Assembly: GCF_054482595.1 (NCBI RefSeq)
Contig: NZ_CM137008.1
Length of the DNA stretch: 64,000 nt
Strand: one strand, 5' to 3'
A program made the position numbers and the translations under genes. Shown in pieces: positions 19,592 through 26,871 of this stretch (position 1 is its first letter; every line of letters begins with the position of its first letter). The notes under the pieces are model-generated. The model searched no databases. It had not been told where the DNA came from and saw only the letters and a program-made list of their open reading frames with translations.

Positions 19592-21951
<2,360 letters not shown>

Positions 21952-22813
21952 TTTGTGGCCAGTCTTTCTGGCTGGCGGTTCAGGGGATGTTTTCTGGTTA
22001 TCGTGTACCACAAAGCAGGGATATTGCCCCGATAGTCACATTTCAGATTGATCGCGGTCTGAAGATGTGGCACTGAGGTAACGTGCTGGTGTCACTGGTA
22101 TTGCTGAAGTTATGGTTTTTCGGGGTCAGGTGAGCCTGTTGTGTGTATGCTTTTTGTTCAGGTCAGAGGGGGACTGTGTGGACAGCGGCTTTTGTCTCCG
22201 GGCATTCACGCCTGAACGATGAATGCGATTTTCAGCAATATTTGTCTTTGTGACACTCTCTGGTTGAGAAGCTAATGCGCGCCCCTGTTTCCACAGAGAA
22301 TGAGGCTTGCCATCAGCCGAAACATCAGTATTCCACGCCATACAGACGGCGCCTGACCATGTGCTGATGCAGGTAAAATGTTTCACTACAACTGTTCGGG
22401 TTGCTATGCAACGAAACAGCGATTCTCACGATCTTTAACTGCAACGTTTTTCCGCCTGAAAGCTGACTGCCTCCTGCTGAGGTGGGAGGCTATGATTCAG
22501 TGCGTTTATAGTCTCCGGGGTATGCATGTACCGGAGCATACCATTTCTGGTGGATAACAAGCCGGCACATTCAGACTGCAGTGAAGATGGAGGCACCTGG
22601 TTGTGAAGAACGTTTCTGCCCGTGGCTGCTTCGCATCATCAATGGTATTCATACCCGCTCAGAAATGACCGGGTGCTGAAGCCCTCCGTTATCGCGCAGT
22701 ATAATGACGTATATGATCTGTGGACGAGTGAGCGGCGTGCCTGATGTACGCCGCTATTACTGTATTTTACCACAGGGCTGGTTTTCTGCTGCCAGCCCTG
22801 TGGTTCTCAGACA

Positions 22814-23431
22814 TCAACTGTGAGCGGCATCAACCGATGTACGGTATGCCATAAGCACGTACTGATCCATCAGATTTGTCAGTGGTTCACTCTGACCCTG
22901 ACGTGCAATGATCCATTGCTCCAGATCTTTTTCTGATTTGTGTTTCAGGTTTTTCGTCCAGTCGTCAAGGCTGTTTCCGGTCATTAAGTCAAGCCAGCAG
23001 AGCCAGACCAGTTTGAGACGTAACTCCGTGCCGCCAAACTGACGGAAGAGGCTGATCAGTTTGTTTGCCAGAGAATGTTGCTTCAGGCGCTCACATTCAG
23101 ACAGCAGGATCCCTTCCAGCATCGGATGATGAACCAGCAGGTGTTCGCTGGTGCATAAATTCACCACCAGATCATCATCCAGGGACGGGGAGCTCCGTTT
23201 GTCCGGACCATAAATCAGCCGGTGCAGACTCTGGGGAACGATGGCAATCTCCGGTTTTTCGCCATTGAATGACACCCACCCGGGCGTCAGATTATGGAAA
23301 TAGTAGATATTCGGATGACACACGCCCCATGATACGGCGTGCCGGGTGAAGCCGGTCAGCCATTTCTGGTAGTTTTCATGGAGCAGCTCGTAACGGGTCT
23401 GATACTGTTGTTTCATTTTCATATTCCTCAC
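22814..23431 (-). CDS. Hypothetical protein (island backbone, downstream of alpA)
   Basis: 205 aa ORF, GTG start, no recognised domain. Confidence 0.5.
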   Translation of the reverse strand: MRNMKMKQQYQTRYELLHENYQKWLTGFTRHAVSWGVCHPNIYYFHNLTPGWVSFNGEKPEIAIVPQSLHRLIYGPDKRSSPSLDDDLVVNLCTSEHLLVHHPMLEGILLSECERLKQHSLANKLISLFRQFGGTELRLKLVWLCWLDLMTGNSLDDWTKNLKHKSEKDLEQWIIARQGQSEPLTNLMDQYVLMAYRTSVDAAHS

Positions 23432-23509
23432 GGGGGATAACAGGCAGCAGAGCGCCGCCGGCAGGCCGGAGATTGCGTCTGCTGTGGGCGAAGGGTTAGT
23501 GGTTAAAAA

Positions 23510-23716
23510 TTACAGACGGGACTGTGCAATACGCGCCTGCAGCCAGGCTTCCACTTCACTTTTCAGCCAGCGGGAGCTGCGCCCCATTTTGATGGGCGCA
23601 GGAAAGCCCCCATCTTTGATGAGTTTGTCAAACCACTTATCGGTAAGGCCGGTCAGTTGAGTGATAAACGCCATGTCGACCATCTGGTCATCCATCAGCG
23701 AAACTGGGGTAGCCAT
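23510..23716 (-). CDS. alpA: AlpA-family phage transcriptional regulator/excisionase-like protein
   Basis: 68 aa from internal Met (MATPVSLMDDQMVDMAFITQLTGLTDKWF...); track ORF 23510..23920 is N-terminally extended through a poly-G tract. Confidence 0.8.
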   Translation of the reverse strand: MATPVSLMDDQMVDMAFITQLTGLTDKWFDKLIKDGGFPAPIKMGRSSRWLKSEVEAWLQARIAQSRL

Positions 23717-23880
23717 GAGAATGTTCCTCCGGATGTTGTTAAACCAGCCGGTGTGGTCATGAAAACAGCGCGCCACCTTCACCGGCATAACAACCGGGGA
23801 GAAACGTAAAAAATAATCGGGAATGTGGCTGTCCGGAGATAAACGGGGGGATTGCGATGGCAGAGCCGTAGCGGAATCCC

Positions 23881-23894
23881 GGGGGGGGGGGGGG
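23881..23894. repeat. Homopolymeric G tract (about 14 nt) upstream of alpA
   Basis: Run of 14 G on plus strand about 165 bp upstream of the alpA start. Confidence 0.6.
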
Positions 23895-24845
23895 TTGCGA
23901 AAAGATGCTTCCGCACGCACGCGCGATAAAGAGGGGATAGTTTTCGTGAGGACAGGGAGAGAAGCAGGCGTTCTGATAATTGCAGAGTTGTTTTCGGAGG
24001 TGGTTACAGTGAGTCAGCCCGTTCCTGGCGAGCAGGAGACTGATATCACCGATGGGATAAGGTTGTCTGATTGGTATTATAAATATAAGAAGTCATCAGA
24101 GAGTAACGTAAAGGATTTGCCAGAATAACCTAAGAGAGTAAATCTCTCCGGTAACAGAGCGCTGTGAAGCATTCTGTATTAGAGTGCAGATACATGAACG
24201 CTGATGCGTAAAATCAGCAGTGACACGCCAGCTCCCCCTATGCCCATTCCTGTATAAGACATGAACTGAGTGTATTAATGCTTCTGCCCTGAGACTGAGC
24301 CGGTGAGTGAGGGGCTGAGAAATCCCTCTTGACACAGCTCTAACCAGAAATACTTCCCCGGTTGTTGCGGTGCGTCCGGATCCCCGATAACGGAACACTA
24401 AGGCTGTATTGCGGGACACCGGGTAAGTAGCAGCCCGTAAGGCGTTCTGTCAACGCCAGAAAAAATGATTTCCCACACGCGTTATAGACTCACTCCTGTG
24501 GACCTGGAAGCCCGTAACTCTGCGGTTGCCCACTGACTGACGGAACTGACCGCAAATTTTACGAGTGCGTGCTGGGCTTCAGTCTGGTCACCTGAGCGTT
24601 CGGTAACGGAGGCGCGGGCGGTAATAGGCTGATTTTCAGGTATTACCGGCTTACAGCGTGTGGTTGATATTGAGGGGCTGTGAGTTTCGCGTATTTGTCA
24701 GAAACCCAGACGAGTTTTCCTGTATGGGACGAAATAAGGCAGCGGCAATACCTGGAAAAATTTAATATGGTATGAAGGAGAACCTGTCGGTTACGCTTAA
24801 TATACCCGGTACACTGTCAGCTCAGGGGATACATGAACCGTTATC

Positions 24846-25049
24846 TCACCAGCTACACAGTATATACACACTGACGCTGACAGTAGTCAGCAGGACCACA
24901 ATAATCAGTGCCAGCAGTATGGTAACGATACGGTCTGTATTCCGGTAATAGCCGAAGGGGTCGACAGAACCACAATACGGGCAACACACTGTATTATGAG
25001 TAATCGCGTTTCCACAGTCCCTGCACTTCTTTTTGCGTATCACCATCAC
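24846..25049 (-). CDS. Small zinc-ribbon protein with C-terminal TM helix
   Basis: 67 aa: CRDCGN...CPYCGS then hydrophobic IVTILLALIIVVLLTTVSVSVYIL. Confidence 0.4.
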   Translation of the reverse strand: MMVIRKKKCRDCGNAITHNTVCCPYCGSVDPFGYYRNTDRIVTILLALIIVVLLTTVSVSVYILCSW

Positions 25050-25209
25050 TCCCTCCTCACAGCCTTACCCGTAACCGGTTTTTTACATTAAAAAAACAAC
25101 GCTGAAAATTCAACCGTCAGTCCGGAGACGACCGTTCGGGTTATCACAGAGTGCCTGAGACAGTGTCCTGCCGGAGGTCACTTCAGGGACTCTGCGCATT
25201 TTTTACGAC

Positions 25210-25815
25210 GTGGCTATTCCGTATGAACCATACGGAGATTTAACCATGACCTACAAATACAACCCCTTCTGGCAGCAACGTATTCGTGAGACGGTGCGGC
25301 ACGCACTGAATGTTCATCCCCGCCTGACGGCATTGCGGGTTGACCTGCGTTTCCCGGATGTACCGGCAGCAACGGACGCAGCTGTGATATCCCGCTTCAT
25401 CAATGCCCTGAAAGCCCGAATCGACGCTTACCAGAAACGTAAGCATCGGGAAGGTAAACGCGTGCATCCCACAACCCTGCATTACGTCTGGGCCCGGGAG
25501 TTTGGGGAGTGCAAAGGTAAAAAACACTATCACCTGATGCTGCTGGTTAACCGGGATACCTGGTGTCGTGCCGGTGATTACCGTGCTCCGGGATCACTGG
25601 CCGGGATGATTAAACAGGCGTGGTGCAGTGCCCTGGGAGTGGATGTCGGGTGCCATGCCACGCTGGTGCATTTCCCGGCCTGGCCGGCGGTGTGGCTGGA
25701 ACGCGATGATGACACTGGCTTTCAGCAGGTGCTGGAACGTGCTGACTATCTGGCGAAGGAACATACCAAAGCTCACTGCACCGGTGAGCGCAATTTTGGC
25801 TGTAGCCGGAGTTGA
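25210..25815 (+). CDS. YfjJ/YagK-family protein (inovirus Gp2-like)
   Basis: 201 aa resembling YagK/YfjJ family of CP4 islands; alternative start MTYKYNPF at 25246. Confidence 0.65.
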   Translation: MAIPYEPYGDLTMTYKYNPFWQQRIRETVRHALNVHPRLTALRVDLRFPDVPAATDAAVISRFINALKARIDAYQKRKHREGKRVHPTTLHYVWAREFGECKGKKHYHLMLLVNRDTWCRAGDYRAPGSLAGMIKQAWCSALGVDVGCHATLVHFPAWPAVWLERDDDTGFQQVLERADYLAKEHTKAHCTGERNFGCSRS

Positions 25816-26068
25816 GCACGACTGGCGCGCCAATACCCGGCAAACCAAAAGTATGGGTTGTTGTCTGGCGGCAACGATGTATCCACTCGCCCACTGACTG
25901 TTTTTTACGTCAGTGTTCCATTGTGTGACAACCACAGTGCTGTAACAGCAACCAGCCTGCTTTACCCAAACTCCAGTCCAGATTTTAACTGAACCGCCAT
26001 TCACACCCTGACCACGCTGCCCGTACCGGGACGGCTGTTGCCTGCGTGTCGTCTGGCGGCTGAGGAAT

Positions 26069-26476
26069 ATGACTATGTACGCAAAATCCTTTATCGCTCT
26101 TGATGGCAACGGACGTCTGACGGGCGCCCGTACTGCACAGGCCGCACCTTATGCTAACTACACCTGCCACTTGTGTGGCAGTGCACTCAGATACCATCCG
26201 CAATACGACACTGAACTTCCCTGGTTTGAACACACTGACGACAGGCTGACAGAGCACGGTCAACAGTGCCCTTATGTCAGGCCGGAGCGCAGAGAAATAC
26301 AGTTGATTAAACGTCTGCAGCAATTCGTACCGGATGCCTTACCCGTGGTGCGTAAAGCCAGCTGGCACTGCAGACAATGTCACCACGATTATTATGGGGA
26401 GCGGTACTGCACACACTGCCAGACCGGAGGATTCAGTATTCCCCGGACAACTCAGGAGGAAATATGCGAATTCTGA
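26069..26476 (+). CDS. Cys/His zinc-ribbon protein, CoiA-N-terminal-like motif
   Basis: 135 aa; CHLCG...PWFEHTD and WHCRQCHH...CTHCQTG motifs. Confidence 0.5.
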   Translation: MTMYAKSFIALDGNGRLTGARTAQAAPYANYTCHLCGSALRYHPQYDTELPWFEHTDDRLTEHGQQCPYVRPERREIQLIKRLQQFVPDALPVVRKASWHCRQCHHDYYGERYCTHCQTGGFSIPRTTQEEICEF

Positions 26477-26871
26477 ACTGTTATATGGCGAATGACAGCA
26501 AAGGCCATTTTGTTACGGCGAAAGAAGCAGCGAAGCACAACCGCCAGGACGTTTTGTGCTGTGTGTCCTGTGGATGCCCGTTAACACTTCAGCGGGGCAA
26601 TGACGGACAACCACCGTGGTTTGAACATGACCAGATGACTGTCGCTGAGAAAATCCTGCTGCGATGCACCTGGCTTGACCCGGCAGAGAAAGAGGCCCGT
26701 CGTTTGCATCTGCAGGGTATGACGGTTCCGGATTATACGGTGAAGGTGAGAAAGTGGTTTTGTGTGATGTGTGACGAAAATTATGAGGGGGAAAAGTGCT
26801 GCCCGAGTTGTGGTACCGGGGTATACAGCAGGGAGGGGGGGCAGGAGGGCAACTGGAAGGATAGGAACTGA
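26464..26871 (+). CDS. Cys/His zinc-ribbon protein, tandem paralog of preceding gene
   Basis: From internal Met with RBS aggagg; CCVSCGCPL...PPWFEHDQ and WFCVMCDE...CCPSCGTG; overlaps upstream gene by 13 nt. Confidence 0.5.
   Translation: MRILNCYMANDSKGHFVTAKEAAKHNRQDVLCCVSCGCPLTLQRGNDGQPPWFEHDQMTVAEKILLRCTWLDPAEKEARRLHLQGMTVPDYTVKVRKWFCVMCDENYEGEKCCPSCGTGVYSREGGQEGNWKDRN

Follow-up and report, generated by a model that had tools for sequence, protein, structure and literature searches.

A hypermutable G tract upstream of an alpA-like gene in a decaying P4-type island of Escherichia coli

We found that a run of 14 G residues upstream of an alpA-like regulator gene belongs to an allelic series whose members and broad spread of lengths identify the run as a lineage-specific, hypermutable mononucleotide repeat. 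It was read in the window, a stretch of 64,000 nucleotides of an E. coli chromosome (GCF_054482595.1, contig NZ_CM137008.1). On balance, we lean towards reading the tract as a neutral or nearly neutral hypermutable microsatellite, which sits upstream of the alpA promoter in a decaying P4-type island at the CP4-44 position. The features of the window to which the text refers are as follows.

23881–23894, plus strand: G14 homopolymer, a hypervariable mononucleotide repeat (direct read, run scan, allelic series in other E. coli)
23854–23859, plus strand: neighbouring G6 run (G7 in one assembly, 50EVA)
23510–23716, minus strand: alpA-like gene, 68 aa, AlpA/excisionase-type HTH (Pfam PF05930, RefSeq annotation, intact in paralogs)
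22814–23431, minus strand: 205-aa ORF for a conserved hypothetical protein, downstream of alpA and co-oriented with it
23806–23813, minus strand: TTTTTTAC motif, conserved 89–100 nt upstream of the ATG in most Enterobacterales alpA-like genes
23717–23805, minus strand: putative alpA 5′ UTR with a predicted long hairpin, z = −2.3
23823–24128, plus strand: 101-aa ORF spanning the tract, judged spurious (no Pfam match, frame unconserved)
24453–24587, plus strand: Hha/YmoA-family gene remnant with an internal stop, intact in some paralogous islands

Direct reading of the plus strand gave exactly 14 G at 23881–23894, with C at 23880 and T at 23895 on either side, confirming the tract of about 14 nt that a preliminary description of this DNA had reported. 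Since the alpA-like gene lies on the minus strand, its sense strand carries the tract as C14, and the 165 nt given earlier between the tract and the gene is the correct distance to the A of the alpA ATG (23716). A scan of all runs of at least 7 nt showed that no other homopolymer in the window exceeds 8 nt, the runner-up G or C runs being 7 nt long. G or C runs of more than about 8–9 nt are very rare in E. coli, and the earlier impression that tracts of this length are rare in enterobacterial chromosomes was borne out for this species: from base composition, about 1e-4 runs of G14 or longer are expected per 64-kb window, and simple arithmetic gives about 0.02 per 5-Mb genome, both strands counted. 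The identical G14 allele was found in several independent complete E. coli assemblies (TUM1880, ECCRA-119, J-8, and APEC E18006). By itself, G14 should be unable to fold into an intramolecular quadruplex of the canonical three-tetrad kind. Searches of the literature on this tract, or on alpA plus a homopolymer, returned nothing relevant, and the tract is a fresh example of a known repeat type.

To place the tract in its genomic context, we used the annotation of strain TUM1880, with which a test kilobase of the window was 100% identical and in which the window corresponds to 1,952–2,016 kb. The island is about 75 kb long and occupies the CP4-44 position, between tmaR/yeeW/cbtA/cbeA/yeeT and cobUST. 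It carries a P4-type backbone (RadC/JAB, antirestriction, DUF932, GTPase, YagK/YfjJ 'inovirus Gp2', and CbtA/CbeA) and is riddled with IS elements (ISEc12, IS66, IS100, ISL3, IS1, and IS3) and pseudogenes. In TUM1880, the annotation shows no integrase from yeeW/cbtA to cobUST, leaving the alpA-like gene without a tyrosine integrase as partner in the element, and the window contains no tRNA gene. The cargo includes patatin/RdcB/dynamin-like genes, a second dgoRKAD set, and two aspartate ammonia-lyase/Dcu transporter sets; fragmented reverse-transcriptase genes lie at about 50.9–51.6 kb of the window, and clbP/thioesterase remnants of a colibactin island lie just outside it. On the tract side of alpA, about 1.1 kb of unannotated DNA holds only the remnant of the Hha/YmoA-family gene, whose product, a nucleoid-associated regulator, is intact (49 aa) in the paralogous islands of ST131 and O2:K2:H1 strains.

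The identity proposed earlier for the neighbouring gene also stood: its product matched the Pfam family Phage_AlpA (PF05930) with 25.2 bits against a gathering cut-off of 21, and RefSeq labels it a helix-turn-helix or AlpA family regulator. The match to the excisionase model TIGR01764 was weak and below cut-off. In passing the Pfam AlpA threshold and in lying in a P4-type island backbone, the gene resembles the small AlpA and P4 Vis-type HTH regulators and excisionases of P4-like islands and PICIs (PMC11773190), from which it differs in having no adjacent integrase and in its distant relation to K-12 AlpA (33% identity over 30 residues). Proteins of the AlpA family serve E. coli mobile elements as master activators or as excisionases, and cross-talk from one element to another occurs (PMC11773190). 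Every paralog retains an intact ORF, and in four of five comparisons there are at least as many synonymous as non-synonymous codon changes. Directly downstream, the 205-aa ORF gave no Pfam or NCBIfam match and is present and intact in all the paralogous islands examined. The region upstream of K-12 CP4-57 alpA differs (43 bp) and was uninformative for the comparison.

We compared the site across other E. coli genomes and metagenome contigs, in which the flanks are invariant (…GGAATCCC[ ]TTGCGAAAAG…). Distant paralogous islands (85–91% identity) carry the allele GGGTGGTTG. In close relatives, both short or interrupted alleles (G6TTG, G7TG, G7TTG, GGAG6TG, and G9TG) and long, pure or nearly pure alleles (G10, G13, G14, G14TG, and G20) were found, so that the region varies from 9 to 20 nt between flanks that are at least 97% identical, as is expected of a hypermutable repeat. 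This series, running from 9-nt interrupted forms to G20, supports the earlier suggestion of a slipped-strand hotspot. The long run is not kept across the paralogous islands, which have GGGTGGTTG or G6TTG, and no C or G run occurs at the equivalent position in 80 alpA loci from other Enterobacterales; judging from the sequences compared, the long run is derived and lineage-specific. The existence of both a pure (G14) and an interrupted (G14TG) long allele points to more than one expansion of the run.

The close lineage without an insertion element is present in 930 of 5426 complete genomes, 172 of which carry a long allele. From a spread sample of 60 of these 172 genomes, we obtained the following region lengths: 11 nt in 7 genomes, 12 in 14, 13 in 7, 14 in 8, 15 in 7, 16 in 10, 17 in 3, 18 in 2, and 19 in 2. 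No periodicity of 3 nt or of 10–11 nt (helical) was seen in this sample, and such a broad, continuous spread is the mark of a slippage-prone microsatellite. A flank-anchored pattern scan of metagenomes gave 14 matches, mostly the short G6TTG with one G10 and one G9TG, too few for a usable length distribution.

The preliminary description had also raised the possibility of a sequencing or assembly artefact, in which the true tract would be short and invariant, and to this we give very little credence. Homopolymers are error-prone in long-read data, and the long alleles are rare in the metagenome assemblies (the two just named). The assembly with the longest tract, 50EVA (G20), reads the G6 at 23854–23859, 21 nt from the tract, as G7; it either miscounts this neighbour or differs there, which hints at homopolymer errors in that assembly. 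Individual tract lengths may be wrong by 1–2 nt in some assemblies through homopolymer miscalls, and such errors in long-read assemblies could account for some of the spread in length. However, the G14 allele was reproduced in independent assemblies, the range of 11–19 nt in many assemblies is larger than typical miscalls, and G7TG, G9TG, G14TG, and GGAG6TG are base substitutions rather than miscounted lengths. Because of these substitution-type intermediates and the full range of lengths, miscalls are insufficient as an explanation.

The microsatellite reading accounts for this series in simple steps. T>G substitutions would have removed the T's that interrupt the ancestral GGGTGGTTG (G6TTG, G7TG, and G9TG), and once the pure run exceeded about 8–9 nt, replication slippage would let its length drift freely, so that strains which are otherwise almost identical now carry from about 10 to about 20 G. 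Length changes at such a site would most likely be neutral or nearly so; at most, they would alter the distance or the helical phase between upstream DNA and the alpA promoter. Several considerations weigh against neutrality. An upstream activator or nucleoid-protein site with tract-dependent spacing is possible, the operon may still matter, since alpA and the ORF behind it are both intact and under mild constraint, and the persistence of long tracts in 172 genomes could reflect selection for mutability.

To locate the tract relative to the alpA promoter, we compared the upstream DNA with that of the 80 Enterobacterales loci, L037–L116, in which the corresponding stretch lies at about 1900–2006. 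It was unrelated except for a short block, and with the closest relative outside E. coli (L037) the window shares only the 128 nt that adjoin the ATG. In 48 of the 80 loci, a T(4-8)AC run was found upstream of the AlpA match, in most of them at a distance of 89–100 nt to the ATG and with a structured leader after it; the version in the window is TTTTTTAC at 23813–23806, 97 nt from the ATG. We infer that this motif marks the −10/start region of alpA, with a possible −10 element TATTTT at 23815–23810 and a transcription start near 23803. With the T6-8AC motif as the start region, the tract would lie about 75–90 bp upstream of the start, and the earlier placement of the tract in the leader was not upheld: the conserved leader starts about 97 nt ahead of the ATG, the tract lies farther out, and it is probably not part of the alpA mRNA leader. 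Comparison of the paralogous islands showed 97–100% identity over 23767–23826, which covers the adjacent promoter and leader, and 73–92% over 23827–23886, the block that reaches the tract. No sigma-70-like −35/−10 pair brackets the tract on either strand, and a role as the spacer between such hexamers was rejected. The tract was found inside none of the functional elements considered, as the ORF across it is unconserved, bracketing hexamers are absent, and the segment is variable. The alpA promoter has no recognisable −35 element and is therefore probably activator-dependent.

In the predicted fold of the 97-nt alpA leader, the 5′ segment GUUUCUCC pairs with the Shine-Dalgarno sequence GGAGGAAC (23730–23723; z = −2.3). 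Analogous Shine-Dalgarno-sequestering folds were predicted for six of nine leaders from other genera, despite differing sequences, and the pairing sequences are clade-specific in Enterobacterales (CCGG-type, CCTTCC/GGAAGG-type, and GATATCCC-type). RNAalifold gave no consensus structure for 20 mixed alpA leaders, because the clades were out of register in the alignment, and per-sequence folds were used for this reason. The exact 29-nt leader pattern had no match in species-representative genomes. An Rfam scan of 21800–26500 on both strands (E ≤ 1) found no match, so that the T-run with its Shine-Dalgarno-sequestering leader, as modelled, may be an undescribed cis-regulatory leader.

A different reading would place the tract inside the message. 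The poly-C would then be transcribed in a long alpA leader from a far-upstream promoter, such as TTTACG-19-TATATT at 24112–24082, and would act in the RNA as a C-rich site for Rho loading, by base-pairing to the Shine-Dalgarno sequence or to G-rich segments, or by way of transcriptional slippage. This weak minus-strand promoter-like site and the good conservation of E. coli paralogs for about 100 nt past the tract are consistent with it, but the site has a 19-nt spacer and failed a standard promoter scan, and the 231-nt extended leader folds no better than shuffled sequences (z = 0.08), with the C-run unpaired. In addition, the T-run, about 95 nt ahead of the ATG, is where leaders in other genera start, and an ISEc20 insertion at the site, described below, is tolerated. 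We regard transcription of the tract in this manner as very improbable.

On the other strand, the tract supplies GGGG codons to the plus-strand ORF 23823–24128 and could in principle act as a frameshift switch. With G14 this ORF is open for 101 aa, and RefSeq annotates similar hypothetical ORFs in some strains. However, it matched no Pfam family, and in-frame tract lengths were not enriched in the 60-genome sample. The ORF was rejected as coding, its frame being broken by indels in three of four paralogs (L006, L008, and L009), and to a frameshift switch we attach next to no weight.

In some other genomes, the alignment extended only up to the tract, and there we found ISEc20, an element of the IS110 family (1.45 kb), inside this G-run. 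The junction reads …CCC-G6-TG[CCCCTATT…AAAGTAAC]G5-TGCGAAAAG. Of 5426 complete E. coli genomes, 826 have exactly this junction (UTI89, SE15, EC958, and ST131 strains among them), and they make up most of those with a full ISEc20; most of the 826 insertions may share one ancestral event. The loci used for the ISEc20 comparison were L010 (1601–3059), L032–L035 (1193–2660), L036, L117, L118, and L121. Four independent sites of ISEc20 are all of the form 'G-run + T', with a G-run at both flanks; apart from the present one, they lie in dgcE, in a gene for a fimbrial usher, and in an ETEC island. The empty site was recovered in the case of dgcE (TTG6TCTGG), and with the element in place it reads TTG6-TG[IS]C-G6TCTGG. 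No empty site was found for the ETEC4077 copy, no Rfam or bridge-RNA match for ISEc20 and its flanks, and nothing relevant in the literature on its target. These sequences suggest that ISEc20 targets and recombines within G-runs, and the junction here together with 'G-run + T' at the other sites makes the G-run upstream of alpA a natural ISEc20 target. Tolerance of the element here in 826 genomes with alpA intact argues that the operon can do without continuity of the DNA at the tract. In strain 2013C-3264 (L121, 100–115), the G6 run of dgcE reads G7 and the annotation records a frameshift; either dgcE holds another G-run prone to slippage, which inactivates a diguanylate cyclase, or the assembly is in error.

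The long run might instead be a by-product of ISEc20, whose unequal resolution or loss would leave an enlarged run that then drifts by slippage. The exact coincidence of the site in 826 genomes, the G-runs on both sides at the four sites, and the change in dgcE on occupation fit this proposal, as does a long allele, that of L030, in which one T follows G13, as at the right border of the IS-bearing alleles. The window allele and most long alleles, on the other hand, retain the TTGCG border of the IS-free ancestral alleles, and the window contains no ISEc20 sequence. The IS-free stepwise series (G6TTG, G7TG, G9TG, G10 ... G14, and G14TG) suffices without the element, and an origin through ISEc20 is in our view quite improbable.

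It is possible that tract length regulates alpA expression, and known systems offer a standard for comparison. Promoter-associated tracts include the poly-C tracts of fim2/fim3 in Bordetella pertussis and the poly-G/C spacers of porA/opc in Neisseria meningitidis, which lie between or beside −35/−10 elements or activator sites, are maintained across strains, and have lengths tied to measured expression. For sabA of Helicobacter pylori, a poly-T 'rheostat' tract upstream of the −35 has been reported (PMC4081817). Like the tracts of fim2/fim3, porA/opc, and sabA, the present one is a long non-coding mononucleotide run upstream of a gene, with strain-to-strain length differences consistent with slipped-strand mispairing. 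Unlike the known phase-variation tracts, it is set back from the inferred start by about 75–90 bp, the segment around it is poorly conserved, and the paralogs do without it. With neutral intergenic microsatellites of E. coli, it shares a non-coding site, birth by point mutations that remove interruptions, length-dependent instability, and a continuous length distribution in the population, whereas it is much longer than is usual for them. As at the target sites of IS110-family elements (for example, the IS621 type), the same G-run is a recurrent and precise insertion site of ISEc20; the window allele differs in having no IS, and the tie is at the level of a common sequence preference. Overall, the tract behaves as any mononucleotide microsatellite, and its likeness to contingency tracts is confined to position and mutability.

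A contingency locus would work by slippage that shifts the spacing or phase of an upstream site (an activator, UP-like, or nucleoid-protein site) relative to the activator-dependent alpA promoter, so that cells would inherit a high or a low AlpA state that can revert; as a promoter element, the tract would be of the phase or rheostat type. A run of this size can slip at a high rate, strains that are nearly identical differ widely in its length, and it lies upstream of a promoter without a recognisable −35. The role of AlpA-family proteins as master activators and excisionases with cross-talk in E. coli (PMC11773190) and the sabA precedent (PMC4081817) are likewise favourable to it. Against it, neither the paralogous islands nor the other genera compared have the tract, it occupies the least conserved upstream segment, and its lengths show no periodicity. 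The island is degraded and without an integrase, and ISEc20 in 826 genomes cuts off the upstream DNA while alpA remains intact. We therefore consider a contingency locus unlikely. In a bolder form, the G-run would be a contingency element that sets the level of an AlpA-family protein able to act in trans on the several related CP4-type islands and satellites of one cell; being also the favoured insertion site of ISEc20, the run would through its length tune the capture of this element as well. We hold this to be a long shot. If true, it would be a rare promoter-type simple-sequence switch of E. coli that controls the activity of mobile elements. Any effect of the tract on an AlpA-family regulator would couple stochastic switching to mobile-element control, which is unlikely on present evidence.

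The conserved leader architecture of Enterobacterales alpA-like genes may be more useful than the tract itself, as may the apparent preference of ISEc20 for 'G-run + T', with this site as its main home in E. coli. For assembly and typing, the locus calls for practical caution as well. Descriptions of E. coli usually credit the species with almost no simple-sequence contingency loci, and against that background the run is an unusually clear natural example: at G10–G20, polymorphic in well over a hundred complete genomes, it would illustrate the birth of a microsatellite through the loss of interruptions, followed by slippage drift.
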